DNA of 64,000 nucleotides, taken from the NCBI GenBank assembly GCA_028278025.1, contig JANQFE010000024.1, positions 11,128 to 75,127 of the forward strand. Reading direction: 5' to 3'. Made by a program: the position numbers and the translations under genes. A model generated the notes under the pieces. The model searched no databases, had not been told where the DNA came from, and saw only the letters and a program-made list of their open reading frames with translations. The DNA comes from Thermodesulfobacteriota bacterium (GTDB lineage: Bacteria > Desulfobacterota > WTBG01 > CAIYCZ01 > CAIRTM01). Shown here piece after piece: positions 43,764-63,871 of the stretch (position 1 is the stretch's first letter; each line of letters starts with the position of its first letter).

Positions 43764-45716
43764 TCACACCAGGCTTGCTGCCAGCCCCTCAACATTTATG
43801 AACACCTCAAAATGACTCCGTGCATAGGCAATCACATCTGCCATATCTGTGCGCAGGGACTCAATACTGATGAAGGTAATTCGTTTTTGATATCCTCGCA
43901 ACTGCTTCAAAAACACAAGCAGCGCTGTGCGCTCCGTGGTGGTTACCCCGCTGAAATTAAGCGCCAGATTGCCCTTCTGCTCTTTTAAATACGTTTCGAT
44001 TCTGTTTTTCAGCTTCATGGCCGTCACCCTGTTAAAAACACCTTTCAGATCAACAATAAGGGGATGATGGGCCTTGTGCTGAGGTCTGTGCCGAATGCTC
44101 AAGATACCATTACCGCTAAGTTCTGCCGGAGCCAGCCGTGTGGCGGCCATGCGGTATTCAGTACGCTGGAGCCGTGCCTGGGGATAGGAACCATGGGCAA
44201 GCTTTACTTTTTCTGCAAACGCAAACAGTGGGACAAGTGTTGATAAAAACTTGTTTTTTACTCCGCCGGAACCTATTTCCTTCAAGATGGCCCGCTGAAC
44301 CTGTCTGATCTGCTGGGCAACCTCGTGCGTAGGGGCATAGCGCACTGCTGTGGGAAACAGGGGCAGAGCTTCAAGGCAGCCTGTGCGGTACTGATCAGCC
44401 CGCATCTGCAGCAGGGGGTCAGAAGAATCTCTGAACTTCAGGTATCCATTCAACTGGGTTGCCACATATCGTATTACCGAAGGCCCCAGCCGACGATATT
44501 CAGCCTCATAAACATCCAGAATCAGCTGCTCCATTTCCTGCTTGCTGATATGGGGATGGTCAAACACCAGATGAAAGCCGTCCCAATGCTTGTAGGGAAC
44601 ATCAGGCAGCAGCCTGCCTTCCCGCTTGAGCCGCTCAAACAGAGGTGTGCTGCAGGCTGCGCTCAGGATAAGAAACTGGCTCAGGCTCGGTCTGAGGGAT
44701 ATGAGATATTCAAAATCTTCCCACACTGATTCAACCGTATGGAAGTCATGCCCTATGATAAGTGAAGCCAGGGTATTGATACCGTGGGCCTGGAGCCGGT
44801 CAAAAATCTTTTTCAGATCGCGGCCCTGCAATTTGGCATAGGTTGCCCGGCTTGATTCCACTCCGATCCAGAGCGACTCAACACCCATGCTGACCAGATC
44901 CTCGGGGTCCCATTGCTCTACGGAGCATGCGCTGGCAAAACAGGAAATTTTTATCGGCTCCTGTCTATCCTCCCGCACACACGCCAAAAACTCACGGGCG
45001 CGCTTTTTCTGCATCAGAAAATCTTCTTCAATGATGCCGATGGGTAGATTTGGATTGTCCAGGGTCCTGTGGACCCTTCTGATTTCACGGTGCAAATCCC
45101 GGCCGGTTTCTAAAAGAGGAATATGGCGCTGCTTATGGAAGTGCGATGTTGCACAGAATTCACAGCCGTGGGGACAGCCGAGCCCTCCCAGCACAACGGC
45201 TCCCTTCATAATCGGGATGCCGGCAATTTTACCTCTGGTGGGATAGACAACATGCTGTGCGGGTTTATCAATGTGGTCCTCTCCCAAAAGCCGCCGCATA
45301 AAGCCGACTCCCTCTTCCCGGCAGATATAATCACCATACTGGTCGCATTCCGGCAGCATGGTTCCGTATCCGCCCAGAATTATACGAGCCTCCGGGGCCA
45401 CCCTGCGTACCATGCGACACATTTTTTTCATCTTGGCAAACGTCGCAATCACGAAGCTGATCCCGACATAATCATAGCCTTTGGCAAGCTCACGTTTAAA
45501 CTGTTGCATGGTGGGGTACTGCAGCACTGTTGTCGGAGTAGCTATATTATTGGCGATATATTCCAGGCCGTAGGAGATATAGGACACCCGGGGGCTGAAA
45601 ATTCCCTGGGCCCGTGTTACCTGGGCATGGAACAGTTCAGGCATGACATGCTCGGTGCAATCATCAGTATTAGCCCCGAATGGTCCGCATACTGTCGTCA
45701 GAAGTATTTTTTTCAT
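43764..45716 (-). CDS. B12-binding radical SAM protein with a C-terminal STAS (anti-sigma-antagonist-like) domain
   Basis: N-terminal cobalamin-binding Rossmann domain, CPHGCEFC radical SAM motif; last ~110 aa (LIVDLKGVF...LALNFSGVTTTERTALLVFLKQL...FEVFINVEGL) matches the SpoIIAA/STAS pattern. Confidence 0.75.
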   Translation of the reverse strand: MKKILLTTVCGPFGANTDDCTEHVMPELFHAQVTRAQGIFSPRVSYISYGLEYIANNIATPTTVLQYPTMQQFKRELAKGYDYVGISFVIATFAKMKKMCRMVRRVAPEARIILGGYGTMLPECDQYGDYICREEGVGFMRRLLGEDHIDKPAQHVVYPTRGKIAGIPIMKGAVVLGGLGCPHGCEFCATSHFHKQRHIPLLETGRDLHREIRRVHRTLDNPNLPIGIIEEDFLMQKKRAREFLACVREDRQEPIKISCFASACSVEQWDPEDLVSMGVESLWIGVESSRATYAKLQGRDLKKIFDRLQAHGINTLASLIIGHDFHTVESVWEDFEYLISLRPSLSQFLILSAACSTPLFERLKREGRLLPDVPYKHWDGFHLVFDHPHISKQEMEQLILDVYEAEYRRLGPSVIRYVATQLNGYLKFRDSSDPLLQMRADQYRTGCLEALPLFPTAVRYAPTHEVAQQIRQVQRAILKEIGSGGVKNKFLSTLVPLFAFAEKVKLAHGSYPQARLQRTEYRMAATRLAPAELSGNGILSIRHRPQHKAHHPLIVDLKGVFNRVTAMKLKNRIETYLKEQKGNLALNFSGVTTTERTALLVFLKQLRGYQKRITFISIESLRTDMADVIAYARSHFEVFINVEGLAASLV

Positions 45717-47426: not shown

Positions 47427-48755
47427 TTATTCCACCCCCCACACATGTACCACGGCTGCGTTTTCGTTGGTATGACCTCCAAAGCCCTTCTCTATCATAA
47501 AAACCCGCTGGCCTGCACTGTCTACGGCTATGCCGCCCACTTCCCCGCAGGTATGCCCGGCAGCATCGCCCAGGTGGAATTCCGCGGGTCTCCAGATTTC
47601 ATACGGCACAACACCCCAGGCATCACGGCTGCCCAGGGCAACCTCGCCCAGCTCATCTACATCATAGAAGATCACCTGGCGCTCGAAAGGATCACAGTGA
47701 TACCCCTGACTATCCTGACAGGCATCAGAACTCGAGGGAGCACCATAGCTGTTATCACCCAGTCCCTTAATACCCAGAAGCACTATAGACCTTTTGTCGC
47801 CGCTTTCTATAAAAGCGCCGCCTTCCCATTTATCGCACATGGTAAAATCAGGAAAGTCACACTGGGAGGGGTCTCCCACGTTGGGCCCGGCGCACTCCGG
47901 GTAGTATATGTTGTACCACAGCATCGGAACTGCATCCAAATCACCACTGGGCTCCTCGCTGTCCCAGGGACGAAAAGCAAACAGCGTGGGCCCCTGCGAG
48001 CCGTTAAATGCCCCGCGGGTTTTGCCCGTGACAAGTGTTCGGCCCCCGAGATACATATTAGCATAGGATTGGGGTACGCTGAAAAGGTAGTCTCCGCATT
48101 TGTTGCCGTGATAGGGCAACTCTTCAGGCCCCACATGATAGAGTCCGCGCGCATGTGATCCATCCATGTCGGAAATCCAGACAGTCCTGTGGCTGTCATC
48201 AACCACACCATACCAGTAATCCAGCGTTCCATAGAGTTTATCGCTTGTCTGGGAGCCCTGCCGCGGCACAACAGCTATACCGCTTACAACGGCAAACTCC
48301 GCATCAAAGTTTTCATTCTGCCTGCTGTACTGCTCCACCAGGCCCCCGTCAAAATTGGTCATTGCGGTAAGCACGGCAGCTTCAGGCAGATCCTGCCAGT
48401 TGGACGCGGTTGATGGTTGCGGAATTGAGAGTTCGGCAAACTCCGGTTCGTTCAGATCAAATCCGGTCACCAGCAGGGAACCAGAGCCCCCGTTGCCGGT
48501 TTCGTAGTAGGCCATACCTCGGGATCCCCAGTTGCACTCCTCCGGCAGACGAAAAGCTCCCTGATAGGTAAAATCTGTTGACTGGAGCCGCTCTGAAGGA
48601 GTTACCGTAACAGTTGTGGTGGTTGTTGTTGACAGGTCGCTGGTAGTGGTTGTCGTGGTTTCATTATCGGGACCGCCGCCCCAATCACAACCGGGGGAAA
48701 AAACAAACATACATACTGCGGGAATAATTGCAATAATTGTGGCCTTTGTTTTCAT
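47427..48755 (-). CDS. Secreted lipoprotein with a poly-Thr linker, function unknown
   Basis: Signal peptide plus lipobox (FSPGC), TTTTTTSDLSTTTTTT linker; GGAGG ribosome-binding site. Confidence 0.6.
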   Translation of the reverse strand: MKTKATIIAIIPAVCMFVFSPGCDWGGGPDNETTTTTTSDLSTTTTTTVTVTPSERLQSTDFTYQGAFRLPEECNWGSRGMAYYETGNGGSGSLLVTGFDLNEPEFAELSIPQPSTASNWQDLPEAAVLTAMTNFDGGLVEQYSRQNENFDAEFAVVSGIAVVPRQGSQTSDKLYGTLDYWYGVVDDSHRTVWISDMDGSHARGLYHVGPEELPYHGNKCGDYLFSVPQSYANMYLGGRTLVTGKTRGAFNGSQGPTLFAFRPWDSEEPSGDLDAVPMLWYNIYYPECAGPNVGDPSQCDFPDFTMCDKWEGGAFIESGDKRSIVLLGIKGLGDNSYGAPSSSDACQDSQGYHCDPFERQVIFYDVDELGEVALGSRDAWGVVPYEIWRPAEFHLGDAAGHTCGEVGGIAVDSAGQRVFMIEKGFGGHTNENAAVVHVWGVE

Positions 48756-49023
48756 AATATACCTCCTCTGGTATGTCTGTTTTTCGTATTAATTGACATA
48801 AAAGGGAACGGAAGCTGACAACGCCTGTAATTGTCTCTACAGATATCCCTTGTACAAGCATTGTAATAATTTTTACCATCTTCTTTCAAGCTTTTTGTAT
48901 ATCGCAAAAAGCCTGTGCTGTCCCTGTTTGTTACGACCGGCAATAATGTAATTTTATGTTTATAATATATACTGTCTATGATACATACATAAAAATCAGA
49001 ACACCCTATCATGAGGTAAAAAA

Positions 49024-49594
49024 AATGGTCACCTGTGAACGTGAAAAACTTGCCGAGGAAGAAAAAAGGCTCATAGCTCCCTGTGGAATCTATTGCGGAG
49101 CCTGTGATATTTTCCTGGGCAAAAGCATGCACCTGGCCAGGGAGCTGCACCGGATACTTGATGGGTTTAATCTCACCGACGTTGCTCCCTTTGTGCTGGA
49201 AGCAGAGCAGGAGCAGGCCAGGGATTTCCTGGCAATCCTTAAAAAATGGGGCAGCGGCAAACAATGTCCCGGCTGCATCAAGGGAGGCGGCAATCCCGAC
49301 TGCCCCATAGAGGCCTGTGCCAAGGAAAAGGGCCTATATACCTGTGCAGAATGCGAACGGATGCCCTGTTCACCGGACGAACGGAATGAGGACCCCTTCA
49401 GCCCGGAGTCACTGCTGGGCCTGATCACAAAACGATATTCGGGCTGGAATATTGAAAACCTGAAGCGTATCCGGGAAATCGGCTATCGCCGGTTTATCGA
49501 TGAAACGCAGGCAAAGGTAAGGGCCGGGTTTTTGACAAGCGATGTGATATCACCTGAAATGGTTATGACTGAGTGTTTTAATAAAATGAAATAA
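49024..49594 (+). CDS. Cys-rich protein, DUF3795-like
   Basis: APCGIYCGACDIF...CPGCIKGGGNPDCPIEACAKEKGLYTCAECERMPC; GAGGTAAAAAAA ribosome-binding site before the ATG at 49024. Confidence 0.5.
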
Positions 49595-49656
49595 GCCACC
49601 CGAACCACCTCACGGTGTGGTATTTGGTTTTTGGCAAATCGTTAACAGATCGCCTA

Positions 49657-49711
49657 GTTCCCGCTTCACACTTTACGCTTCTTGTTTGACGTTATTAATC
49701 CAGTATCTAGC
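49657..49711. repeat. ~54-bp direct repeat copy 2 (family C)
   Basis: gttcccgcttcacactttacgcttcttgtttgacgttattaatccagtatctag. Confidence 0.65.
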
Positions 49712-49995
49712 ATCCCCGACCCTATCGAGATCTTCGCTGCGCTCCGACAAGCAACTGACAACTGATGTTTTTATAACTTTAGGCACTTTCTTTACCTTTC
49801 TCATTACTACTTGTTTAAGCTTAGTAATTTTTGAACCCTCAAGGGTCAGGTTATACATAAGCCCTTTATTTGAGGCCACAACAGCAATAGTCGGCTTATT
49901 GAGCGTTTCTGTGTCCAGGGTACCGCCGGCACCGAATGTAGCTATGGCAACTGAGCCTTCAGCACCGACCTTCCAGCCTTCGCTTTCACGAAAAT
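49673..49995 (-). pseudogene. 3' fragment of a SYLF/Ysc84-domain gene with no start codon, abutting repeat elements
   Basis: The frame reads ...EGWKVGAEGSVAIATFGAGGTLDTETLNKPTIAVVASNKGLMYNLTLEGSKITKL (SYLF-like G-rich beta motifs) and opens directly after a TAG with no in-frame start. The C-terminus is encoded by repeat family C. A MITE copy lies immediately upstream. Confidence 0.3.
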
Positions 49996-50010
49996 GTAAC
50001 TACTTTTTCT

Positions 50011-50120
50011 GACCGGATTTACAGGATTAACATGATGTTTCAAAAGGGCTGACGCCATGTTGAAAACAGCAATCCTGTACAACTCTGAGTAAAGTCGCAG
50101 GATTATTCCTGTCTAACAGA
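50011..50120. repeat. Palindromic MITE/REP-like element (family A, subtype 2)
   Basis: gaccggatttacaggattaacatgatgtttcaaaagggctgacgccatgttgaaaacagcaatcctgtac...cctgtctaacag; shares both arms with the 58310 copy. Confidence 0.6.
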
Positions 50121-50315
50121 ATCAACGAACACCATCTGATATTTTATTATTAATTGTTATATTTTTTGTTGTTACATCCGATAGTTAGACTATTGAGCGT
50201 AACAGTGAAACGAGCCGCATCCAGTGATTGCGCGGGGCAGCATCTTGCAAAATACTGCAAAGGACTGTTCCCGTAAAACATACAATAAAATATTTCATGC
50301 ACAGAAAGGCTCATC

Positions 50316-53300
50316 ATGCATAAAAAACAAACAAAATGTTTTTTTCAGAAAGTTGTTTTTTTAGCGTTTTTTACTGTTTTTTTGATCTTTATGCTGCTTC
50401 CGGCTTCTTTCAGCTTTGCCCGGCAAACCATTAAAAAAAGCCGGGACATAACCGCACCGGCTGCCCAGCGTGACCCTACGACAACTACCACGACCAGGGA
50501 ATTAACCACTACCACGATCGGCCGTGAGACTACCACCACAACAACAACCAGGGAATTAAGCACCACGACGTCTGTACCCGATACTACTACCACTATTGTA
50601 TTTGATACCTCCACTACGACCTCGGTAGCAACACTGCCGACCACAACAACAACTGCGTCCCGTGATACCTCTACTACCACAACTGCGGTCCTTGATACCA
50701 CCACGACAACTACCGCGGCCGTGGCAGCGGCCACAGATTGCCAGTCAGCCAAAGATAACGCTCAGATCATCTGCTGCACGGATGCTGTATCCGCTCCTGT
50801 TCCTGACAACCTCGACTATGTATCACTGACAAACTGCGAAACCGGTGAAGTTGAGTCGTTTGCCTGTGTCCATGATCCCGCTACCGGATCAGAGCTGGCT
50901 ACCGAGACCACCGTGACTGAAGGGGCCGCTGAGGATTATTCCAGCCCTGAATGTCAGGCAGCCCTTGATGATGTTGCAGACTACTGTGCTGAGCAAGATG
51001 AAAACTGGCATGAGGATCATACCTATACCCTTGAATGCGAATCCGTAAAAACCGCGGTTTACCCGCTCTGTGATGACCTGCAGATGATCAGCGAAATCGG
51101 TTGTCCCGAATGGCCGGGCCTGGAAGTACTGCAACGTATTTTTGAAGGCACCACCGAAGGCCCGCCGATCCAGATACCGATTCCCACGCCTGAGGAAACG
51201 CCGTTTGAAGAACTGGAGAGCGACGCTGCCGCAAAACCCGGCGCCGACATGGATCAGTTTACCCAGCTTATGGATAATGAGACCGCTTTGAAAGAAAAGG
51301 AAGACCAGAAGCTCAGGATCGAAATACCGGGTAATTTCATACGCTATATGATGGCACGGACGTTCTTTAAAAAAGCCCTTGAAATGATGGATGGCCAGGA
51401 TGGTTTTGAATGCGAGCCGGATGAGCTGGAGTGCTCCATCGATCCCCTTGAGCTTGCTGATTTATCTCCCTTTTTAACGATTGATAAAGAGAACTTTAAG
51501 CTGTCAGCCAAAAAAGCCTCCTATGGCTACCGATTATACGACCTGTGGGCCGGTGAGGAGGATTCTGTATACATACAGTGGTCCGGGGAAATCAGGGTTG
51601 AAACCAGCTCTAAAATGAAGCTTGACTTGAAGGATAATGCTACCCTGGCGGTTATACCGCTGCATGAACCCGACGCGGCAAACGGATACTCAACCGATGT
51701 TGAGGTCTCTGAGCGCTGGCTTGACCGGGCACAGTTGGTACTCGAGCTGCCTGATGACCGGTGCAGTCCGCTCCAGGGTAACCAATATAACGATAAGTAC
51801 ATTACCTGGACGACACCCTTTTCATGCAACTGCACGGGAAATGACGCCGGTAAGACCAACTATTGTGTTGTGGACCCGTATGAACGGGAGGAATCAGAAA
51901 TTAACATAGATGATCTTGAAAGCGCGGGTGCTGATCTGGTTGAAGTCGTCTGCACCGATCCGCTCACAACGGCTGAAGGTGAAAACCTGTCCGAATATCT
52001 TTCTAACCAGGGATATTCCGATGAGTTTGTTGCCCAGGTCATCACCACGCTGCGGGATTTTGGCTGTGCCGGCCGGACCGTTACCCGTGTAGCTACCGAG
52101 GAGGGTTTGATAACCTCGGCCATCGGTCTTGAGTTTACCAATATTATGGACCTCGGCGCACTGCAGGCCACCATGGAGCCCGGTATTTTCACGATCAAAT
52201 TTCCGTTTTTCGGTACTGCCATTCAGTATCTCGAAAAAACCTGGTGGGGCTGGCTGTTCAGCTGGATTATCGAGATCATTCAAAAACTGCTTGAAGCTAT
52301 TATCAGTGCCAAGGGAACACTTCTCTTAAATGTCCTTGTCAATACGGCAAGTGCTTCCCTGGGCGACCAGGAAATGCTGCTCCACGGCGTGATCAGCCAC
52401 AGCCTGGGCACAGATGACAGTGATCCTGATATAAGCATCGGGCTGCGGCGGCTGGCAACGGATGCGCCTGAAGTGAAGATCACCAATTTCGGTTTTTCCT
52501 GGGAAACGCCCTCATGTGACAGTATGGACGGCCCCGAGGACCTCCTGAACCTGATTACCTGTCCATTTGAAATCCTGGTCAATCTGCTGAAATATGTGCT
52601 GTCCCCCATCACCAATCTGCTGCTCACCCTGGCAGATCATATGTTTGATCTGATGAATTTTATTAATGATGAAATTTCAGGTGTCGTTATTAATGAAGTG
52701 GCTAAAATAGAAGACAGTAACCAGATAGCCGCGCTCATCAAAGGCACGGTTGTCTCAACCAGCACCAATCCCTATTATCTGGCCGAAGAATACGCTGATC
52801 AGGAACAGCTGGGCCAGCTGCTGGGAGTTGTGACGGATTCCCTGCCCGTTCTGCAGGATCTGGCCAAAACCATTCCTCCGCCGCTGGTGCAGCTTTGTCT
52901 GCTGGCTGGAAACAGCGACACTGCCGGCGGCGTTGCCTGCCAGATTGTCAAGATTTTTGCCGGCGGCTTTGATGTCGACTCCGGCAGCAAGGGGGTCAAT
53001 GAGGTCCGGGTCGATATACCGCGCCTGGGCGCCAAAACACATTACCGCAGCATGGCTGATTTTGAAGAACTGTCAAGTATGCTCAATGACGACCTGCCGC
53101 CGGTACGGTTCTGTCTGCCGGGAGACAATCCTCCCGGGTCCGAGGTATATGATCAGGATGACCTGCTGATCCTGACCGATTTTAATGAAATTGATATCTC
53201 CGATGAGGAAAGCGCCAAACCGCATGACTGGCGAACCCAGTCGGCCCTGTTCCTGGATCTCAAGGCCCACGGACAGCTCTCCATCCCGGGCCTGGCATCA

Positions 53301-54044
53301 CTGCTGATAAAACCCACCGAGCGTACAAACCTGCTCATTAACGAGGTTTTTGTCTGCAAGGATAATGAGTACTGCAACCCCGCTAAAAATTATATCAGAG
53401 ACCGCGCAGAGCTCGCGCTTTGCTCCATGGCTTCAGACATCTGGTACTCCCTGGCCTTTAGCGAAGAGGAGCAGCAATACTATAACCTGGCCGCGGACAT
53501 GGAGCCCGAGCTTATCGCCACGCTGATGGTATTTGCTGAACCAGTGGAAGGCGATCTGCCGGATGATTTCAGTGAAGATCTGGAAGCGGTGGCCGAGTGG
53601 CTCTCGCAATGCCAGGAAGCGTTGAGTGAGCTGGAATGGGCGCTGCCGGGACCGTCAATCTGCGAGGACCTGGCCGGAAGCAGTGCGAAAACTTTAAGTG
53701 CGCTCTACCAATTCCGTGATACCGTGCTGAGCACAGATGAAAAAGGTATATTCTACCGCACGGCCTATTACCGCCTGCGGACCGACCTGGTGGCTCTTTT
53801 TGACGCCCACCCGCATCTGTTAAACCGCACGGCAACATTCATTAACCGGGTAGCGCCCCGGCTGCAGACTGCCGGTCCGCAAGAGATCATTGTCCTGTCA
53901 GCCGGTGATCTTGCTGAATGCCGCTCACTGCTACATGATATGATTAAAGTGTCAAACGGGCCGCTGAAGCAGACCCTTACCCGGCTGCGAACCGATCTGG
54001 AAACGGGCACCCTGCTGCCTGCTCTGGGCATCCGCGTTGAGTAA
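50316..54044 (+). CDS. Very large (1242 aa) secreted or surface protein with N-terminal signal-anchor, a ~100-aa Thr-rich repeat region and a large Cys-containing domain of unknown function
   Basis: Long intact ORF with a GAAAGG ribosome-binding site and signal/TM segment (VVFLAFFTVFLIFMLL); TTTTTRELTTTTIGRETTTTTTTRELSTTT repeats; no recognisable catalytic motif. Confidence 0.7.
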   Translation: MHKKQTKCFFQKVVFLAFFTVFLIFMLLPASFSFARQTIKKSRDITAPAAQRDPTTTTTTRELTTTTIGRETTTTTTTRELSTTTSVPDTTTTIVFDTSTTTSVATLPTTTTTASRDTSTTTTAVLDTTTTTTAAVAAATDCQSAKDNAQIICCTDAVSAPVPDNLDYVSLTNCETGEVESFACVHDPATGSELATETTVTEGAAEDYSSPECQAALDDVADYCAEQDENWHEDHTYTLECESVKTAVYPLCDDLQMISEIGCPEWPGLEVLQRIFEGTTEGPPIQIPIPTPEETPFEELESDAAAKPGADMDQFTQLMDNETALKEKEDQKLRIEIPGNFIRYMMARTFFKKALEMMDGQDGFECEPDELECSIDPLELADLSPFLTIDKENFKLSAKKASYGYRLYDLWAGEEDSVYIQWSGEIRVETSSKMKLDLKDNATLAVIPLHEPDAANGYSTDVEVSERWLDRAQLVLELPDDRCSPLQGNQYNDKYITWTTPFSCNCTGNDAGKTNYCVVDPYEREESEINIDDLESAGADLVEVVCTDPLTTAEGENLSEYLSNQGYSDEFVAQVITTLRDFGCAGRTVTRVATEEGLITSAIGLEFTNIMDLGALQATMEPGIFTIKFPFFGTAIQYLEKTWWGWLFSWIIEIIQKLLEAIISAKGTLLLNVLVNTASASLGDQEMLLHGVISHSLGTDDSDPDISIGLRRLATDAPEVKITNFGFSWETPSCDSMDGPEDLLNLITCPFEILVNLLKYVLSPITNLLLTLADHMFDLMNFINDEISGVVINEVAKIEDSNQIAALIKGTVVSTSTNPYYLAEEYADQEQLGQLLGVVTDSLPVLQDLAKTIPPPLVQLCLLAGNSDTAGGVACQIVKIFAGGFDVDSGSKGVNEVRVDIPRLGAKTHYRSMADFEELSSMLNDDLPPVRFCLPGDNPPGSEVYDQDDLLILTDFNEIDISDEESAKPHDWRTQSALFLDLKAHGQLSIPGLASLLIKPTERTNLLINEVFVCKDNEYCNPAKNYIRDRAELALCSMASDIWYSLAFSEEEQQYYNLAADMEPELIATLMVFAEPVEGDLPDDFSEDLEAVAEWLSQCQEALSELEWALPGPSICEDLAGSSAKTLSALYQFRDTVLSTDEKGIFYRTAYYRLRTDLVALFDAHPHLLNRTATFINRVAPRLQTAGPQEIIVLSAGDLAECRSLLHDMIKVSNGPLKQTLTRLRTDLETGTLLPALGIRVE

Positions 54045-54047
54045 CAC

Positions 54048-54827
54048 ATGCAACGGTATCTAAGAAAAATCTTGTGCAATGTCCTGTCGGTGCTGCTACT
54101 GAGCGCGTTGTTATATGCGGAAGAGACTTGCCCTGCTCCCACCCTGTCCCCGCCGGCCCGGGCCGCACAGGTTGAGGTTAATCTTGATAAATTCAACGGT
54201 GAGATTTCACTCAATATATCCTCAGCCGAAGGGCTCATCATTGACTGCAATTCCTTTTACCTGCTGCAAAACAGTGTTCGCTATGATGTGCGTGATTGCG
54301 GCCTGGTGGATGCCGCTGATGTATGCGGCGTGCCCATAATGTTTCAGGAGCTTACTGTTGAGGTTACGTATATTGAAGGATTTGATTTTCTGGGCGCTTT
54401 TACGCTTGTTCTCAACGACAGCTCCATAGATATCCCTGCGGATAATGCTGATGCATATGATGCCGCCTGGGTGTATGCATCAACAATCGCGCAAGCCTTT
54501 TCGCCGGTACCGGGCTGCCTGACACTGCCTGAGGCCCAATATGTTTTTAACCGGGGAGATGCTATCTGCATCTTTGCTGTTCTGCCGTTTCTTGATGCGG
54601 GTGATGAAATCCGTATTGAGACATCTACGGTTAAGAGACTCTATCGACATACTGTTATAGAACACCAGGAGACCTGGGACAGTCGGGGGATAAGCTCGAT
54701 TTATAGAGTTCTGAACCTGAATGGTCCGCTGTCATACGGGGACTGGAAAGCCACTATCTATGTAAATGATACGGAGGCTGTCAGTGAATCCTTTACCGTA
54801 CAGATGAGAAAGAGAGGCAGCAGTTAA
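54048..54827 (+). CDS. Secreted hypothetical protein co-transcribed with the 1242-aa protein
   Basis: Starts 4 nt after the upstream stop; signal peptide (VLSVLLLSALLYA); several Cys residues. Confidence 0.55.
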   Translation: MQRYLRKILCNVLSVLLLSALLYAEETCPAPTLSPPARAAQVEVNLDKFNGEISLNISSAEGLIIDCNSFYLLQNSVRYDVRDCGLVDAADVCGVPIMFQELTVEVTYIEGFDFLGAFTLVLNDSSIDIPADNADAYDAAWVYASTIAQAFSPVPGCLTLPEAQYVFNRGDAICIFAVLPFLDAGDEIRIETSTVKRLYRHTVIEHQETWDSRGISSIYRVLNLNGPLSYGDWKATIYVNDTEAVSESFTVQMRKRGSS

Positions 54828-55033
54828 AGACTTATAAATGGCAGTTTTTCTTCTCAATTCATTTATTTAACCGCAGACTGTCGCGGAACCTTTTGCTCCC
54901 GCGACAGTGCGGAAGCAAAAACTGCATTCGCTTCACGATATTAGTTGTTTAGTGAATCTGCTTAAAATTTGCAAAGGTATAGCAGAATTCTTTTTTAGAT
55001 TGCAATGACGAATGGTGAGCACAACGCAGTAGA

Positions 55034-55927
55034 ATGGACGTTTTTCAACAGCCCCGCTTTCTGGCAAACCATATGACGCTGAATAACTCCATAATGATCG
55101 GCCTTGCTTGCGGTGTCTTATCGTATATTACCCTGTATATCGGCAAAGGGCTCCAGAAATATGCCATTGAGGGCTTTAAAACAAAAAAATCCATAAAGAA
55201 CAAACATTCGGGAATCTGGATTTTCGGAACCATACTCACGGTTTTATTTACGCTTATCCACTGGATTGCCTTAAACTTTGCCCCTATCAACCTGATCGCC
55301 CCCCTTGAAGGCACAGGCCTTGTAACACTTCTTTTTTTCTCATACTATGCCCTTAAAGAATCCATGACAGGTAAGGAAATAACGGGCGTCGTTTTCATTA
55401 TCATTGGCACGGTTCTGGCCGCCCTTTACAATACCAATGCAGGAGAGGTTGATACATCCCGTTTCAGCATGACGATGTTTTTAATTATATCCGTCCCGCT
55501 TGTCCTTATGGAGATCATTCTGATTATTATTTCAAGATTCAGCGGCTATAAATTCGCCGGATTGGTCATAGGCTTTAGCGGGGGCACCATGATGGCACTG
55601 CAGACCCTGACAAAACGCCTGTCATTCATGGATGATTACGCCCTGATTTTTATACCGCTGGCCCTCTTGTTTGCCACTGCAACCCTTGTATTTACTCAAC
55701 TGGCCTTTGCCAAGGCAAAGGCCACTCAGGTTGTACCCTGCTTCACGTCGGCCAGCATCATTATCGCCTCTTTGTCAGGGAAAATGGTTCTGAATGAAAG
55801 ACTCGTCACTATACAGATCCTTGGTATTGTTACCATTGTTATCGGTGTGATTCTGTTAACCGCGTTCCAGAAAGAGCAGGCAAATAGCAGGCTTAACGGC
55901 AATCTGTTCCGGTTGAAACGTTTTTAA
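55034..55927 (+). CDS. DMT-superfamily (NIPA/EamA-like) integral membrane transporter
   Basis: ~9-10 TM helices in two half-repeats; GKGLQKYA-type motif. Confidence 0.55.
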   Translation: MDVFQQPRFLANHMTLNNSIMIGLACGVLSYITLYIGKGLQKYAIEGFKTKKSIKNKHSGIWIFGTILTVLFTLIHWIALNFAPINLIAPLEGTGLVTLLFFSYYALKESMTGKEITGVVFIIIGTVLAALYNTNAGEVDTSRFSMTMFLIISVPLVLMEIILIIISRFSGYKFAGLVIGFSGGTMMALQTLTKRLSFMDDYALIFIPLALLFATATLVFTQLAFAKAKATQVVPCFTSASIIIASLSGKMVLNERLVTIQILGIVTIVIGVILLTAFQKEQANSRLNGNLFRLKRF

Positions 55928-57062
55928 TTGCATAATCATCGCTGCGCTGATAACCGGCCGATTTCCCGGATGTGGTCAGTTCCTCATACAGTGAAGAAAT
56001 ACCGTCAATCATTTTGGTCTCATCAAACAGCAATTCTGCCCGTGCCCGACTGGCCCTGCCCATCTCCTGAGCTTTGCGGGGATTGTCAAGCAGCTGAGCA
56101 ATCGCCCGGGCCAGGGCCTGGGAATCGCCCGGCGGAACAAGTATGCCGTTCTTGCCGTTTTCCACGGCTTCCGGAATACCTCCTACCCTGGTGGCGACGA
56201 TCGGTTTTCCGGACGCCATTGCCTCTATCAGTGACCTCCCGAGCCCCTCTGCCAGCGAGGGTAGGATAAAGACATCAAGGAGCGAAAGTATGTCCGGAAT
56301 ATCATTTCTTTTGCCGGTAGCAACAATGTACCGTGTGACACCCAGGGATTCTGCATGACTTCTCAGCACGTCAATCTTCTTTTGGCTGGCGCCGCCGCCC
56401 ACAACGAGGCACATAAGCCGTCTTTTTTCATCAGTTAATATTTTAACCGCCTCAAAAAGAGTCTTAAACCCCTTGCGCTCTGTCAGCCTGGCAACAATGC
56501 CGATGATGGCGCAATCCGCAGAGAGGCCCAGAGCCTTCAAAAGCTCCTGGTTCTTTTCCTGCGGAGCAAACTGGCTGAGATTGACGGCCGTATGGATCGT
56601 GGTGACATGACGGGGAGGCAGGCCTGATTGGATCATAACATCCCTGATATGCTCAGATATTGCGATGATCCGGTTGGTGAGCGTGCCGTAGAGGTAGCGG
56701 CTTAATGCGCCTCCTTTAAGCGGCACATGATTATGCTTTGTTCTAACATGGGCTTGAACGCCCGCGATTTTTCCGGCAAGCACACTCAGCAAATGATCAA
56801 CATACCCATGAGCATTGATCAGATTGACCTGCTCCCGCCGCAAAAAAAGGCTGAGCTTTATGAGCGCCGGCACGAAATGCTTCATGCTGAGGGGAACTAC
56901 TTCAAGGCAGCGCTCCCGGGCGCTGAGTTCAATGAATGAATGCGGCTGACACACAACTATCACCCGGTATCCTCTCTTGTGGAGTTCCTGAGCCTCCTTC
57001 AGTGTCCGCATGGTCTGTCCGGTAAGATGTGTTTGCCTGTCGATCTGTACAACGGTAATCAT
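55893..57062 (-). CDS. Glycosyltransferase family 4 (GT-B, group 1)
   Basis: C-terminal EX7E-type motif region GLGRSLIEAMASGKPIVATRVGGIPE; AGGAGC ribosome-binding site. Confidence 0.85.
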   Translation of the reverse strand: MITVVQIDRQTHLTGQTMRTLKEAQELHKRGYRVIVVCQPHSFIELSARERCLEVVPLSMKHFVPALIKLSLFLRREQVNLINAHGYVDHLLSVLAGKIAGVQAHVRTKHNHVPLKGGALSRYLYGTLTNRIIAISEHIRDVMIQSGLPPRHVTTIHTAVNLSQFAPQEKNQELLKALGLSADCAIIGIVARLTERKGFKTLFEAVKILTDEKRRLMCLVVGGGASQKKIDVLRSHAESLGVTRYIVATGKRNDIPDILSLLDVFILPSLAEGLGRSLIEAMASGKPIVATRVGGIPEAVENGKNGILVPPGDSQALARAIAQLLDNPRKAQEMGRASRARAELLFDETKMIDGISSLYEELTTSGKSAGYQRSDDYAIKNVSTGTDCR

Positions 57063-57099
57063 AGTGGAGCTCCTGCTCAGAGCATCTTACTGCTGCCGG

Positions 57100-57966
57100 T
57101 TAGAACAGGTATTGCTGAACAATTTTTGGTATGCGCAGAAAGACACTGTTTGGTGAGATATGTCGCTTGCCTGCATACGCTTCATACTTTCTTAAAATCT
57201 CCAGATGATTCTCAACATAGGTACTGATATCATCAGGATGAACTTTTTTGTAATCGCATTCCTTAACGACTGTCGCCTTAATCTCTTCATCTGTGATTTC
57301 AATGGAGAGTTTTTGCAAAAGCTGCTTGAAGTAGAAGAATCTATTATTGCAGAAATCTTCATAATACAGGGGAAAAGCATCAACACCAGCGCACCGTAAG
57401 TCCTGGAAAAATCCCTTTCGATAGGCAATTCTTTCTTCACACTTTCTGATTATTCTCTTTAAAACCATCCAGTTTACTTTTATTTTAGGTAAATCATTGA
57501 TGGTGACATCATAAAACTGCAGATGCCCGCTGTTGCCTTTCCCATTGCCGTGATATTTCGACAATGCCCATCTCAGCACATCCTGCCTGATGAGAACAAA
57601 AGCAGTAACATCATATTTTTTCAGCAGGGAAAAAATTTCTGCATTCCACTGCTTTCTTAACCTCATCTTGAATCCGTGACTGGTGTGCGGCGCAAACTTA
57701 AATTTACAAACACTATTGTATGTGGAATAGATTGCGTTAAGTGCTGCAAGATGGTTTTCTGATGTGTCGTAGATCATTGACAGACATTTTAAAAAATCTT
57801 CTTTTGTAATGTCTTTGCCTAAGGCCCCTTGATTATTAAGAAACATATGTCTGTCAAACGGTTCAATAAAATCAGAGATAATTTCGGTTTGCTTGAAATT
57901 ATTCAAAATGCTGACAAGGGCGCACGAGCCTTCTTTTTCGGAATTAAAAATAATAAAGTTTTTCAT
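57100..57966 (-). CDS. Sulfotransferase-family protein (Stf0-like)
   Basis: 5'-PSB-like FIIFNSEKEGSCAL and 3'-PB-like RQDVLRWALS motifs. Confidence 0.45.
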   Translation of the reverse strand: MKNFIIFNSEKEGSCALVSILNNFKQTEIISDFIEPFDRHMFLNNQGALGKDITKEDFLKCLSMIYDTSENHLAALNAIYSTYNSVCKFKFAPHTSHGFKMRLRKQWNAEIFSLLKKYDVTAFVLIRQDVLRWALSKYHGNGKGNSGHLQFYDVTINDLPKIKVNWMVLKRIIRKCEERIAYRKGFFQDLRCAGVDAFPLYYEDFCNNRFFYFKQLLQKLSIEITDEEIKATVVKECDYKKVHPDDISTYVENHLEILRKYEAYAGKRHISPNSVFLRIPKIVQQYLF

Positions 57967-58309
57967 GCATAATCCTGCAAAATGAGGAACATGATCCTTT
58001 TATGCACGGCAAGACAACAGCCCCCCCGATGCATCGGAGTGGCTTTACTAGGCCTTTTGTCGCCGGATCCCGCTTTATTACGGGACGCCGGGGGTTTTTA
58101 TGAAGACAATAAACCTATTCTAATATGCCGGGGTTATGTTTTTGTTAGGATAGATTTAGGTTTATGTTAATTAAGGTGTTGAGGAGAAAATAAGAATTTG
58201 AGTAGTGAGTGCTGAAAGAGGGAGGCTGATAGAAATCCAGTGGTTTTCATGAAACGTGATTATTGATATTCGGAAAGCAATGGAGCCGGGCATAGGTAGT
58301 GAACTGTTT

Positions 58310-58406
58310 TTCTGACTGGATTTACCGGATTGACATGATTTTTCAATATGGCTTGAGCCATATTGAAAATAACATCCCGTTCATCCGGTTAATCCTGTCT
58401 AACAAT
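58310..58406. repeat. Palindromic MITE/REP-like element (family A, subtype 2) overlapping the 3' end of the PHP gene
   Basis: ctgactggatttaccggattgacatgatttttcaatatggcttgagccatattgaaaataacatcccgttcatccggttaatcctgtctaaca is a long imperfect palindrome. Confidence 0.65.
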
Positions 58407-58780
58407 AAAAACCCGGGACCTCGTACTTCAGAAATGCAAAAGGAGGGTTTAATATCAATGCCGAGTATGTGATACTTCTCATGATCATTGGTAATCTCCG
58501 AGCCGGGCAGGAGCAGCATATTATACTGTTCCCACGCTTTTCCGGCACCGGCCCATAGCTGCTGCAAATACTCATGAAAATCTTCCTGGAGCACGTAATA
58601 GGGCCGCCCGTTAGCAAGCCGGTTGTTTTCCCGCGTGCGCCTGTCGAAAGTATGGTCTGTAATGGCTATGGCATCAAAACCGTTTGCTCCGTAGAGATCA
58701 ATTACTTCATCCAGCGATAACAGACCGTCGCTATGATTCGTATGGATGTGAAAATCGCACAGCAGCCATTCGCCGAACAT
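58343..58780 (-). CDS. PHP-domain metal-dependent phosphoesterase; the 3' end is encoded by a repeat element
   Basis: LCDFHIHTNHSDG...AIAITDHT PHP motifs; the last ~25 codons fall inside the palindromic repeat at 58310..58406. Confidence 0.65.
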   Translation of the reverse strand: MFGEWLLCDFHIHTNHSDGLLSLDEVIDLYGANGFDAIAITDHTFDRRTRENNRLANGRPYYVLQEDFHEYLQQLWAGAGKAWEQYNMLLLPGSEITNDHEKYHILGIDIKPSFCISEVRGPGFLLLDRINRMNGMLFSIWLKPY

Positions 58781-58839
58781 GGGGAGTATCCTTTCAATGA
58801 TGTGTTACTGTAAAACAGCAGATAGCAGACGCCGTAACC

Positions 58840-59127
58840 ATGAAAACAGCCTGCAGCCTGTTCTGTATTCTTATTATGTTTATGAGCGGATGTGCCCCGG
58901 CTATCAGGGTGATGCATTTTACTGACAGCACATATTCACCAACCGGCAGGGTTGAGGTATTCAGAACCGCTCTGCCGCAGCGCCCCTATACCGAGATTGC
59001 CCAGCTTGAGACATCCGCACATGATGAAAAGGCTGTTTCACTGTTGAGAGCAAAGGCCCGGGAAATTGGGGCTGATGCTATTATCCTGATTGGTGAGGCA
59101 TACCGCGGGACCTCTTATGGATATTAA
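58840..59127 (+). CDS. Small lipoprotein, hypothetical
   Basis: Signal peptide plus lipobox (FMSGC). Confidence 0.45.
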   Translation: MKTACSLFCILIMFMSGCAPAIRVMHFTDSTYSPTGRVEVFRTALPQRPYTEIAQLETSAHDEKAVSLLRAKAREIGADAIILIGEAYRGTSYGY

Positions 59128-59859: not shown

Positions 59860-60052
59860 TTTTGATCCCATTGCAACGCAGCCGAGTGCAGTGGTTGCTC
59901 TGCGGATCAAGGAGGCAAACTGTTTGAGCGTAGTGAGTTTTTGCCTCCGCCGCAGGCAAGCACTGCATGAGGGTATCCGTCTTTGGCGGGCAAGTTGCAG
60001 GGTGGCCTTTCTTTTGCATACTTTTCTTTGGCCAAACAAAGAAAAGTATGGG
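59860..60052. repeat. Composite hairpin repeat (family D), longer copy with an internal insertion
   Basis: cccattgcaacgcagccgagtgcag ... caagttgcagggtggcctttctttt ... catacttttctttggccaaacaaagaaaagtatg (14-bp stem). Confidence 0.55.
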
Positions 60053-60244
60053 TGTTGAAAGCGATCTTTTCTTTTAACAACTTTAATGTTCCTCCCCGAA
60101 TCGTTCAAAACGATTCTGTTTAAGACCCTGAGCTATGACGAAGGGGCGCACGGTTGAAAGTCGCAGATCCGCCTCGGGAGAGCCGTGAGTTTAGAAATTT
60201 AACTAACCTTTTAAATCATAAATTTCTCAAAAGGAGAAGAACCA

Positions 60245-63200
60245 ATGAAAAAAAGTTTCTCTACTATAATCGCAGTCCTGTTATGTGTGCTGCTGCCGGC
60301 AACATACGTCTTCGGACAACCCATATCAGCTGCAAAAATAGCCGGCTTTGCAATTGAAGATGCCGAGATTGCAACCTATTCCGCTGAACACCAGGCTGTG
60401 TACATCTCTGCCAAGTCAACCATAGAAATCATCAGCATTGCTGACCCTGCCGCCCCTGATGTAAGCAGCAAGATCAGCATTGACATTTCAGCGTACGGAA
60501 GCGCAGTAAACAGCGTTGCGGTCTATGGCGATCTTGTGGCCGCAGCAGTTGAAAATGAAGATGCACAGGCCAACGGCAGCGTTGTCTTCTTTGATCATGC
60601 CGGCACCTTCCTGGCCGGTTTCGATGCCGGGGCCCTGCCCGATATGGTCACGTTCACACCCGACGGGAACTATGTGCTCGTGGCAAACGAAGGCGAGCCC
60701 AATGATGAATACACGCTTGATCCGGAAGGCAGCCTTACCGTTATTGACATCTCCCAGGGCTTGGCGCAGGCACAGGTTACCCAGGTCGGATTCACATCCT
60801 TCAACAGCAGTAAAGACGACCTCATTGCTGAAGGCATACGTATTTTCGGTCCCGGGGCAACCGTGGCACAGGATTTGGAACCTGAATATATTGCTGTTTC
60901 TGATGATTCACATACCGCCTGGGTCACACTCCAGGAAAATAACGCTGTTGCAGAGCTTGATATTGCCACTAAAACTGTTAGCGCCATCCATCCGCTTGGT
61001 TATAAAAGTTACGACTCCCGGAGCAGGGGGATTGATGCAAGCGATAAAGACGGCGCTATCAATATCCGGCGCTACCCGGTCCTGGGGATGTACCAGCCCG
61101 ATGCAATTGCGGCTTTCAATCACGCAGGACGTACCTACCTGATAACAGCAAATGAGGGCGATGCCCGGGATTACGACGGCTTCAGCGAAGAGGCCCGTGT
61201 TGAAGACCTGACCCTTGATCCTGAGGCTTTTCCTGAAGCCGGAGCGCTGCAGGCAGCGGATGTGCTGGGACGACTGAAAACGTCAACAGTCATGGGCGAT
61301 ACCGACAGTGATGGCGATAATGATCTGATTTACAGTTACGGCGCACGGTCCTTTTCCGTTTGGAAGCCTCACAAAGGTACATTGAAACAACAATATGACA
61401 GCGGAAACAAACTGGCCAAAATCACAGCAGCACTTCATCCTGAAGCATTCAACTGCAATGACGGAATAATAAGCGAATTCGACAAGCGCAGCGATGACAA
61501 AGGCATTGAGCCGGAAGGGGTCACCGTCGGTACAATCGGCGATAGACGCTATGCCTTCATCGGCCTTGAGCGTGGTCTCGGCGGTATCATGATATTTGAT
61601 ATCACTAACCCGCGGGAGCCCGCCTTTGTCACCTGGGTACTCTCCAATAACGGCAGCGGAGCAGACGGGAACGACATTGCACCCGAGGGTATAGCGTTCA
61701 TCGCTCCGGAAAGCAGTCCTAACGGCAAAGCGCTGCTGGTCGGTACGTTTGAAGAAAGCGGCTCGGTAGCAATCTATGAACTGTCATTGCAACAGGACAC
61801 GCAGATATCCATTGCTCCGCAGGCCGGAACTATCGGCACCTCCCTCATCATAACGGGCCACAATTTCGGCAGCAAATCCGGCAAGGTACGGATCGGCAAT
61901 AAAAGCGCAAAAACAATCCTGTGGACTGACACGCTGATTCAGTGCACACTCTTTAATCAGATGAAGCCCGGCACATACGATGTAACCATAACACCTTACA
62001 AAGCTGAACCGATCCTTTTCAGTGATTATTATACTGTCAGTCTTCCCGAGGTATCTACCATCGATCCCCCGCAGGGGGCTGCTGCCGGAGAATCCGTTAT
62101 GCTGACCGGAAAGTATTTCGGTTCGGCAAAGGCCAAACTGAGAGTGTATCTATACGACGGCTGCTCAAAAACGATTGCACCAGACCTGACGTATACAATG
62201 GACCCGCTTACCGGCGAAAGCACCTGTACGTTCACTATGCCCGATCTGCCGCCCAGCACTTATGATCTCAAGCTACGCACCTTGATTGGATGGTCGGAAC
62301 CGATCCCGTACGAATGCATCAACCCTGATTACCAGGACCTGCGCACCATCTCTGTCGTCAGCACCAATGATTTTCACGGTGCCCTTGTCGGCAGGGTACA
62401 CTCCTGGTCAAACGGTGATGCGGTTGGAGGTGCCGACTGGCTGGCAGGCTACCTGAACATTATCCGTGATGAAAATCCCAAAGGCTATCTGTTTGTTGAC
62501 GCCGGAGATATGATGCAGGGTACGCTCACCTCAAACTACTTTTATGGTGAACCGACCATTGACGTGTTCAACGAAATGGACCTGAAAGCTACCGCACTGG
62601 GCAATCACGAGTTTGACTGGGGATTGAGTATACTGGCTGACCGCATGGCGCAGGCTGGTTTCCCGTTTATATCCGCCAACATTATGTACCGCGATCATAA
62701 AGACCGTTTGCGGCACTGGTGCACCCCCTACATCATTAAGAAGATCAACGGTATTAAGGTCGGCATTATCGGACTCACCACTACCGACACTCCCATTATT
62801 ACCAATCCGGTTCATGTGGCCGACCTGGAGTTCGTTGAACCCGCTGCTGCCGTAACCGGCCTTATCCCCGAACTGCAACAAAAGGGGGTAACCATGGTTG
62901 TTGTCGTTGCTCACATGGGCGGGTTCTGGAACAGCAGCAGTGCAGCAGTGGAAGGAGAAGTTGCCGACCTGGCCTGTGCGCTTGATGCCGATGATGTTGA
63001 TCTTATTGTCTCAGGGCATACCCACTCACGCATTGACGAGGTGATTTGTGACATACCGGTCGTCCAGGCCTATTCAGGCGGTACGGCCTTTGCCCGGGTC
63101 GACGTTAGCGTGGATGTGTACAATAAAAGGGTTGTCGGATATGACATGAACGAATTCCCAACCACAACATACCAGACATACAGCGGCAGTCCGGCAACCT

Positions 63201-63871
63201 ATGAGGGAGTTACGGTTTCTCCGGACCCGAACGTTGCTGCAATTGTCGGCTTGTATGAAGCCCAGATAGACGATATCAAAAACCAGGTGCTGGGCCAAAC
63301 AACAGCCCCAATTACCCGCCAGTACAGATATGAGTCCGTCATGGGCGACTGGGTCACGGACATCATGCGCACCTATGAGTCCGGTATTGACTTCGCGCTC
63401 ACCAACAGCGGCGGCCTGCGTACGGATATTGATGCCGGCGACATTACCTTTGGTGAGGTCTACGAAGCACTTCCCTTTGACAACTCGCTGGTTGTGGTAG
63501 AGCTTGACGGAAATGAAGTACGTCAGGTGTTGGAAGAAGGTGTCACCGGTGCCCACGGTGTTGTCCAGGTGTCAGGCCTGCAGTTTACCTTCGATTATGA
63601 CGCACCCGCCGGAAGCCGCATTATCGGAGATATTATTGACCTGAACACCAGCTTGCCGATCGATCCGGTCGCCTTGTACCAGGTTGCCGTAAATGACTTC
63701 ATGGCAAACGGCGGTGACGGCTATGCTACCCTGGCTGCCAACCCGCAAACAAATACCTTCTTTCTGGTGCGGGATATCGTTGTCAGCTGGATCATGGCCA
63801 ACTCACCCTTCACAGCACCTGACCCGACGGTTGAGCAGCGTATGACTGCCTTAGGCACACCACCATCATAA
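60245..63871 (+). CDS. Large secreted multidomain protein: N-terminal beta-propeller-like domain, IPT/TIG domains and a C-terminal calcineurin-like 5'-nucleotidase/phosphodiesterase (UshA-like)
   Basis: AAGGAGAAGAA ribosome-binding site, signal peptide; IPT/TIG patterns (GTSLIITGHNFGSKSG...YDVTITP; GESVMLTGKYFGSAKA); metallophosphatase motifs (STNDFHG, GNHEFD, VVAHMG, SGHTHS); 5'-nucleotidase C-domain. Confidence 0.8.
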   Translation: MKKSFSTIIAVLLCVLLPATYVFGQPISAAKIAGFAIEDAEIATYSAEHQAVYISAKSTIEIISIADPAAPDVSSKISIDISAYGSAVNSVAVYGDLVAAAVENEDAQANGSVVFFDHAGTFLAGFDAGALPDMVTFTPDGNYVLVANEGEPNDEYTLDPEGSLTVIDISQGLAQAQVTQVGFTSFNSSKDDLIAEGIRIFGPGATVAQDLEPEYIAVSDDSHTAWVTLQENNAVAELDIATKTVSAIHPLGYKSYDSRSRGIDASDKDGAINIRRYPVLGMYQPDAIAAFNHAGRTYLITANEGDARDYDGFSEEARVEDLTLDPEAFPEAGALQAADVLGRLKTSTVMGDTDSDGDNDLIYSYGARSFSVWKPHKGTLKQQYDSGNKLAKITAALHPEAFNCNDGIISEFDKRSDDKGIEPEGVTVGTIGDRRYAFIGLERGLGGIMIFDITNPREPAFVTWVLSNNGSGADGNDIAPEGIAFIAPESSPNGKALLVGTFEESGSVAIYELSLQQDTQISIAPQAGTIGTSLIITGHNFGSKSGKVRIGNKSAKTILWTDTLIQCTLFNQMKPGTYDVTITPYKAEPILFSDYYTVSLPEVSTIDPPQGAAAGESVMLTGKYFGSAKAKLRVYLYDGCSKTIAPDLTYTMDPLTGESTCTFTMPDLPPSTYDLKLRTLIGWSEPIPYECINPDYQDLRTISVVSTNDFHGALVGRVHSWSNGDAVGGADWLAGYLNIIRDENPKGYLFVDAGDMMQGTLTSNYFYGEPTIDVFNEMDLKATALGNHEFDWGLSILADRMAQAGFPFISANIMYRDHKDRLRHWCTPYIIKKINGIKVGIIGLTTTDTPIITNPVHVADLEFVEPAAAVTGLIPELQQKGVTMVVVVAHMGGFWNSSSAAVEGEVADLACALDADDVDLIVSGHTHSRIDEVICDIPVVQAYSGGTAFARVDVSVDVYNKRVVGYDMNEFPTTTYQTYSGSPATYEGVTVSPDPNVAAIVGLYEAQIDDIKNQVLGQTTAPITRQYRYESVMGDWVTDIMRTYESGIDFALTNSGGLRTDIDAGDITFGEVYEALPFDNSLVVVELDGNEVRQVLEEGVTGAHGVVQVSGLQFTFDYDAPAGSRIIGDIIDLNTSLPIDPVALYQVAVNDFMANGGDGYATLAANPQTNTFFLVRDIVVSWIMANSPFTAPDPTVEQRMTALGTPPS

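Follow-up and report, generated by a model that had tools for sequence, protein, structure and literature searches.

A large disulfide-rich extracytoplasmic protein with a threonine-rich stalk and a possible lipid-binding fold in a Thermodesulfobacteriota bacterium

Organization of the Two-Gene Operon

In this study, we analyzed a 64-kb stretch of contig JANQFE010000024.1 from a Thermodesulfobacteriota bacterium (the window, in whose positions all coordinates are given), and the subject is an operon of two genes for secreted proteins. The list of open reading frames (ORFs) of the window placed on the plus strand a gene for a protein of 1242 aa (50316..54044), called the large protein, and after it a gene for a secreted, Cys-containing protein of 259 aa (54048..54827), called the small protein. 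The last base of the large gene's TAA stop codon is 54044, and the small gene opens with the ATG at 54048, leaving a gap of 3 nt (CAC), and the two genes are translationally coupled. A lipoprotein gene of 442 aa is located nearby on the minus strand (47427..48755). The three ORFs, their poly-Thr segments and the close spacing of the two plus-strand genes had been reported in a first-pass annotation of this DNA and were all confirmed. Its description of two tightly coupled genes for secreted proteins was also borne out by the N-terminal signal or anchor of the large protein and the Sec signal of the small protein.

Sequence and Family of the Large Protein

The large protein is a modular extracytoplasmic protein, composed of an anchor or signal, a Thr spacer of ~89 residues, a disulfide-rich core of ~960 residues and a helical module of ~140 residues. 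Its N-terminal signal-anchor or long signal peptide (residues 1-35; 50316..50420, plus strand; MHKKQTK, 27 hydrophobic residues and PASFSFA) was defined by Kyte-Doolittle analysis, in which residues 6-36 were strongly hydrophobic with a window score of 2.56. The Thr-rich stalk or tether follows at residues 53-141 (50472..50738, plus strand), with 52% Thr and seven runs of T4-T7, and this stalk is unique to the window protein within its family. All four Thr codons are used in the tract and Tandem Repeats Finder reported no DNA repeat there, which shows that the Thr repeat is degenerate and maintained at the protein level. A slippage-prone DNA repeat as the source of the tract was rejected on the same observations.

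The whole protein is acidic (isoelectric point 4.25) and contains 30 Cys, 23 of which belong to family columns with full or at least 90% conservation. The stalk is followed by an N-terminal Cys-rich region (residues 142-263; 50739..51104, plus strand) with the family pattern C...CC and paired Cys. Its conserved columns are C174, C184, C213, C224, C252 and C263, and the N-termini of the homologues carry the same C..CC pattern. The family core spans residues ~330-1102 (51303..53621, plus strand). By prediction, it has two modules, each combining a long helix with long beta-strands, then a bundle of helices and, at its C-terminal end, an alpha/beta domain. Within the core, the family alignment revealed a conserved, Trp-rich, amphipathic or hydrophobic long helix at residues 638-665 (52227..52310, plus strand), which reads YLEKTWWGWLFSWIIEIIQKLLEAIISA, is flanked by long strands and corresponds to helix H502-530 of the predicted model.

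The most conserved block of the family is found at residues 900-1046 (53013..53453, plus strand). It contains the motifs GAKTHYRS, PPVR[FY]C, DWRxQ[C]A, RTNxLxNEVFxC and RAxLAxCSxxADxW, and residues H909, S1037 and D1041 are invariant, with R1003, N1009 and R1030 nearly so. At residue 976 (53241..53243; DWRxQ-C-A), the window protein differs from nearly all of the family in having Ser and not Cys. Should the Cys concerned be disulfide-bonded, one partner Cys would remain unpaired in the window protein.

The first-pass annotation had taken the large protein for an orphan, and this did not hold. An exhaustive HMMER/phmmer search with query residues 144-1242, i.e., with the linker removed, against 1.84 billion cluster representatives (clustered at 50% identity) returned 94 matches, 32 of them with E <= 1e-30, which together span query residues 4-972. 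About 45 of the 94 matches are long family members of 1000-1500 aa, plus some fragments, and the best homologue reached an E of 6.9e-112 at 35% identity. The members are secreted and Cys-rich, with signal peptides, Cys-rich N-termini and conserved Cys throughout. One comes from a Myxococcales metagenome-assembled genome (MAG), one from a groundwater 'Deltaproteobacteria' MAG, and the rest from metagenome contigs. A full-length word-indexed search gave the self-match only among the 8000 proteins sharing most words, which were probably poly-Thr matches, and the exact-sequence look-up of the large protein and of P0164 gave no match.

The Pfam scan of 39 family members found no family for the core even at E <= 10, no NCBIfam model matched the core of any member above its cutoff, and Protein Data Bank (PDB) sequence and profile searches with the core and the conserved block gave noise only. 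Thus no profile match to a well-characterized family was obtained for the core, and the same was true of the small protein. Judged by sequence, the core is a rare, uncharacterized family of secreted proteins of 1000-1500 aa that has no Pfam model. Additional domains are scarce in it: one member carries PEP-CTERM, one carries TSP3 repeats, and one gives a weak dockerin match. Ten homologue loci were examined. Six of them (two genome and four metagenome loci) came from a pattern scan, for which a sub-alignment covering the GAKTHYRS block was used, and the other four from exact look-up. In all ten, the gene is solitary, surrounded by unrelated genes of mostly housekeeping function, and the six pattern-scan loci share no neighbours with the window.

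C-Terminal Module of the Large Protein

Residues ~1103-1242 form a helical module of ~140 aa (53622..54041, plus strand), which profile and phmmer matches relate to CFI-box-CTERM (NF041770). The NF041770 model matched the window protein at residues 1122-1172 with 18.6 bits and an E of 0.0012, under its curated cutoff of 40 bits. Separately from the core, the module matched about 50 other proteins, mostly at the extreme C-terminus, with phmmer E from 1.8e-11 to 1e-3. These module-bearing proteins carry subtilase S8, peptidase C25/PorU-like, Calx-beta, BACON, sortilin/BNR, PPC/PKD and choice-of-anchor D domains, and 9 of the 10 that were scanned matched NF041770, a single one (P0181, 42.9 bits) exceeding its cutoff. 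Their alignment shows the pattern LYxFRDxVL..G..Y..LYY...E...L...P.L..R......P.... and, after it, a second half, also helical, with ...G.LL..LGI.V at its end. In the model, the module is all-helical and has no transmembrane segment. Among 35 members of the core family, it was found only in the window protein, and one other member has PEP-CTERM instead.

The module resembles CFI-box-CTERM in its C-terminal location, in the core motif LYxFRDxVL...G..Y..LYY and in its attachment to diverse secreted proteins past a linker. The signature of CFI-box-CTERM is presumably Cys-Phe-Ile at the domain start, as its name implies. This CFI motif is missing here: the window protein has PSICEDLAG (SIC) and its relatives mostly have CP. 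A second difference is a helical extension of ~60 residues ending in ...GxLLxxLGIxV, whereas the NF041770 model spans 69 residues. On these matches, we regard the module as an extended, divergent relative of CFI-box-CTERM, and it may be an unrecognized localization or sorting signal. The literature search returned 0 papers for 'CFI-box'. The statement in the first-pass annotation that the two proteins have no recognizable domains is therefore correct for Pfam, in the core and in the small protein, but not for this module. It had also proposed a check of the C-terminus for toxin or sorting domains, which revealed no toxin domain and the CFI-box-CTERM-like module instead.

Predicted Structure of the Large Protein

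AlphaFold2 was run on an alignment of 39 family sequences, and the model of the large protein had a predicted local distance difference test score (pLDDT) of 77.5 and a predicted template modelling score (pTM) of 0.70. The modules made of a helix and long strands were mostly at pLDDT ~80-97, and the N-terminal Cys-rich region was low to moderate. In order, the model contains two strand-flanked long-helix modules, a helical bundle, an alpha/beta domain with the conserved motifs and a helical C-terminal module. The conserved Trp-rich hydrophobic helix of the family alignment (residues 638-665) is the long helix of one of these modules.

Foldseek ranked P47, BSP30b, Takeout, OrfX1-OrfX3, CETP, the beta-carotene-binding protein and Der p 7 (two chains) at positions 1-5 and 8-10, and LBP at position 21. 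All of these belong to the TULIP superfamily or to related tubular lipid binders. The convergence of two structure-search methods, mostly on this one small superfamily, is a genuine but weak signal from the predicted model.

Small Protein

The small protein has a typical Sec signal (MQRYLRKILCNVLSVLLLSALLYA/EE) and 7 Cys, and a crude propensity estimate predicted it to be beta-rich. Codon usage supported the frame of its gene, being positive only in the annotated frame (0.184, vs. -0.03 or lower in the other five frames), and a spurious frame was rejected on this basis. Against 5.8 billion clustered proteins, the sole match of the small protein was itself. No similar ORF was present in any fetched locus or fetched protein, and no match was obtained from Pfam, NCBIfam (above cutoff), PADLOC or PDB sequence searches. 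By sequence comparison, the small gene is a lineage-specific ORFan.

Neighbouring Lipoprotein

The lipoprotein of 442 aa combines a poly-Thr tether with a five-bladed beta-propeller. Its signal peptide ends in ...FVFSPGC/D, and the lipobox Cys column is conserved, close homologues having FGC, SAC, AGC and VAC before the Thr linker. The lipobox Cys is followed by TTTTTT..TTTTTT, i.e., two T6 runs, and the ORFs of the large protein and the lipoprotein are the only ones in the window with runs of T4 or longer. The linker common to the two proteins, to which the first-pass annotation drew attention, is thus present in both, but a functional link was not supported. In 12 of the 12 closest lipoprotein homologues, poly-Thr follows the lipobox Cys, and most of the distant homologues have acidic or other linkers. 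This argues that poly-Thr is a tether style of the lineage and not a sign of a common function. In the neighbourhoods of two close lipoprotein homologues, no member of the large-protein family was found, and the neighbours differ and are not conserved. Based on these neighbourhoods in two genomes and on its own large conserved family, the lipoprotein was rejected as a part of the large/small-protein system. The literature search on poly-threonine lipoproteins returned nothing relevant.

Searched with its linker removed, the lipoprotein has at least 358 homologous clusters at 52-84% identity in several phyla. The named homologues come from Desulfobacterota ('Deltaproteobacteria', Desulforhabdus), Phycisphaerae, other Planctomycetota, Verrucomicrobiota and Myxococcota MAGs. 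An alignment of 54 sequences has 54 invariant positions, including Q169, K173, H216, R247, D308, E422 and H437. No Pfam family matched the core of these 54 members, a few homologues carry dockerin, PKD, Big or TSP3 additions, and the PDB sequence and profile search with the family gave noise only. The predicted fold, a five-bladed beta-propeller, is nearest to glutaminyl cyclase (bacterial/plant-type) and YjiK. It differs from these propellers in its low identity (10-14%), in giving no Pfam match and in being larger by ~150 residues, and the link of the lipoprotein to glutaminyl cyclase is by similarity of the modelled fold alone. The family looks like an unrecognized secreted enzyme family.

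Surrounding Sequence

The lipoprotein gene, which had been described as adjacent to the operon, is indeed nearby on the minus strand but is not its direct neighbour. A DUF3795 gene (48956..49594, plus strand) lies between the lipoprotein gene and the operon, as does a decayed Ysc84-like fragment. This fragment (49673..49999, minus strand), which reads ...GWKVGAEGSVAIATFGAGGTLDTETLNKPTIAVVASNKGLMYNLTLEGSKI..., is an open frame without a usable start within the 720 bp between genes that lie upstream of the large gene. Its match covers the central part of the Pfam Ysc84/SYLF profile (positions 29-89 of 127), with an E of 3.7e-5 and 23.9 bits. The frame is probably the decayed remnant of a gene for a lipid-binding SYLF domain. 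Upstream of the large gene there are also a 27-nt direct repeat, 74% identical (49887..49913 and 50181..50207), and a 14-nt inverted repeat, in which 49900..49913 pairs with 50300..50313 just ahead of the start codon of the large gene. Both repeats could be due to chance.

About 50 nt past the operon, a GC-rich hairpin (54877..54908, plus strand) was found by folding of the surrounding 76 nt (54860..54935). This stretch folded at -26.9 kcal/mol (z = -3.9), and 0 of 200 shuffled sequences folded as well. The hairpin, which has no U tract, is likely the end of the operon transcript. The consensus terminator scan did not pick it up, and the numbers of sites from the promoter and terminator scan were not above those in shuffled sequence. 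Neither the Rfam search of the whole window nor the PADLOC and conflict-system search gave matches.

Further downstream (55034..57966), an EamA/NIPA-type transporter gene converges with a GT4 glycosyltransferase gene, the two overlapping by 35 nt (55893..55927), and an ORF of 288 aa with no family match comes after this pair. The 2.3-kb stretch from 57966 to 60245 has no long ORFs. In this stretch, the match of a 145-aa ORF (58343..58780, minus strand) to the PHP domain (E 1.3e-6) is confined to the initial ~40 positions of that domain, and the ORF may be a truncated gene. The gene at 60245..63871 (plus strand) encodes a large secreted enzyme of 1208 aa with choice-of-anchor I, TIG, calcineurin-like phosphoesterase and 5'-nucleotidase C-terminal domains, and there is no obvious C-terminal anchor in its last 100 residues. 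On the other side of the lipoprotein gene, a B12-binding radical SAM protein of 650 aa (43764..45716, minus strand) has a weak STAS-like C-terminal domain (E 0.012). Small RRM and cold-shock genes lie on either side of its gene, and the arrangement recurs on a Logan contig from the same organism.

Discussion

We tentatively propose, with rather less than even confidence, that the large protein is an envelope protein with a membrane tether, whose role is to bind or shuttle some hydrophobic ligand, for example a lipid. The N-terminal helix would keep the protein on the cytoplasmic membrane. In both the large protein and the lipoprotein the Thr tract comes directly after the membrane-anchoring element, which suggests the logic of a tether or stalk. 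With ~90-105 linker residues at ~0.35 nm each, the extended stalk would reach about 30 nm and could carry the globular part across the periplasm. There, the core modules, in which long twisted beta-strands are predicted to surround a Trp-rich hydrophobic helix in a TULIP-like manner, may bind or shuttle a lipid or a hydrophobic component of the envelope. It is this helix-in-sheet arrangement of the modules that suggests a lipid or other hydrophobic ligand. The C-terminal module would localize or dock the protein, and the co-translated small protein could act as a lineage-specific accessory, by analogy with TipA and TipB of Bdellovibrio. The broader proposal that the core family is a new class of diderm envelope proteins, giant and TULIP-like, that bind or transfer lipid, and that its member here has a periplasm-spanning poly-Thr tether and is served by a private, co-translated, TipB-like adapter, seems to us doubtful.

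Several observations weigh against a tethered lipid binder. Foldseek with the model of the large protein gave nothing significant (best E 0.25). The Pfam scan of the 39 family members at E <= 10 found none of LBP_BPI_CETP, JHBP, P47, DUF1439, DUF4403, DUF2140 and DUF2993. When the profiles of all sub-domains were compared with each other by hhalign, the probability was at most 2.3%, and no double-TULIP duplication was seen. The peak of family conservation, with the invariant His, Ser and Asp, lies in a domain other than the helix-and-strand modules and could point to an enzyme. Tethering is not certain either, as a plausible signal-peptidase site (SFA/RQ) is present at the N-terminus, and the CFI-box-like module has no known function in the literature. 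Finally, no counterpart of the small gene was present at the ten homologue loci examined, and the small protein therefore cannot be a core partner of the family.

The large protein could instead be a surface adhesin or an S-layer-associated protein, in which a Thr stalk, possibly O-glycosylated, presents a disulfide-stabilized head that binds a surface, a polymer or a cell, while the C-terminal module attaches to the envelope. An extracytoplasmic, very acidic and Cys-rich protein with a long Thr-rich stalk fits this description, and the C-terminal module also occurs in proteins with Calx-beta, BACON, PKD and choice-of-anchor domains, which are typical of surface proteins. The single family members with PEP-CTERM, TSP3 repeats and a weak dockerin match, as well as the GT4 glycosyltransferase genes nearby, are in line with it. 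However, the profile scans found no Ig-like, cadherin, SLH, beta-helix or other adhesin or S-layer repeat, the core is a single non-repetitive multidomain body, and the homologues stand alone among housekeeping genes and not in surface-polymer loci. We consider an adhesin unlikely. We are similarly sceptical of a secreted enzyme. In such an enzyme, catalysis would fall to the strongly conserved C-terminal alpha/beta domain in the core (GAKTHYRS ... CSxxADxW), which would represent a new family of hydrolases or transferases with a substrate in the envelope or outside the cell, and the remaining parts would serve as a scaffold for substrate binding. The concentration of conservation at residues 900-1046 around H909, S1037 and D1041 argues for such an activity, and CFI-like modules are found elsewhere mostly on peptidases and glycosidase-like proteins. 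Yet this block has no profile or PDB sequence match, much of its conservation consists of Cys and structural residues, and the order and spacing of the H...S...D residues fit no known triad that could be compared.

The proposal of the first-pass annotation that such proteins may be polymorphic toxins was not supported by the analysis. A polymorphic or pore-forming toxin, with the downstream gene encoding an immunity or helper protein, might be expected where a large secreted protein is followed by a small lineage-specific gene, and the conserved hydrophobic helix and very weak Foldseek matches to MAC, gasdermin and RCD-1 pores (E 1.5-4.5) could be taken in its favour. But the Pfam and NCBIfam searches found no Rhs/YD, filamentous haemagglutinin or PT-domain region for delivery and no known toxin domain, and the C-terminus is a conserved module common to peptidases, not a variable tip. 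The downstream product has no homologues, and its signal peptide would be out of place in a cytoplasmic immunity protein. Such a downstream gene was absent at the other family members examined, and no PADLOC or conflict-system match was obtained. A toxin is thus highly improbable.

Three unannotated families are worth curating: that of the large core, that of the extended CFI-like module and that of the propeller lipoprotein, whose members keep >50% identity across phyla. The analysis also flags the C-terminal module of many secreted hydrolases as unstudied. If the TULIP likeness is spurious, the large protein is one more uncharacterized envelope protein from an environmental MAG. If the lipid-binding, TULIP-like interpretation is true, it would be a very large, disulfide-stabilized and tethered addition to the few bacterial TULIP families (P47/OrfX, YceB, DUF4403, DUF2140, DUF2993 and TipA).

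The TULIP proteins include BPI/LBP/CETP, Takeout/JHBP, the clostridial OrfX1-3/P47 and the bacterial YceB, DUF4403, DUF2140 and DUF2993 proteins. The large protein resembles them in its predicted modules, where long antiparallel strands twist around a long hydrophobic helix, and they account for most of its best structural matches in two independent searches. In contrast, the large protein is 2-5 times larger, is disulfide-rich and has additional helical-bundle and alpha/beta domains, and the scores are not significant, with no sequence or profile relationship and no detectable tandem duplication. In the Bdellovibrio bacteriovorus system, TipA is a double TULIP and TipB is a small, C2-like beta-sandwich adapter, co-operonic with it, which opens up TipA's TULIP fold, and the tipA and tipB genes overlap by 4 nt (bioRxiv 10.1101/2025.09.09.675085). 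Here too, the gene for a secreted and putatively TULIP-containing protein precedes that for a small secreted protein in tight coupling, with a 3-nt gap in place of the 4-nt overlap. The two systems, which were compared by description and not by sequence, differ in that the TULIP likeness is faint here and the small protein is not conserved with the family. By this analogy, the small protein may be a lineage-specific accessory of the large protein, as TipB is of TipA. YceB and DUF4403 proteins are extracytoplasmic and membrane-tethered, as is proposed for the large protein, but their linkers of at most 25 residues cannot cover the inter-membrane distance of at least 20 nm (PMC6791001). The linker of the large protein is ~4 times longer than those of the known bacterial TULIPs and, if the TULIP-like interpretation is true, could span the periplasm, unlike theirs (PMC6791001).

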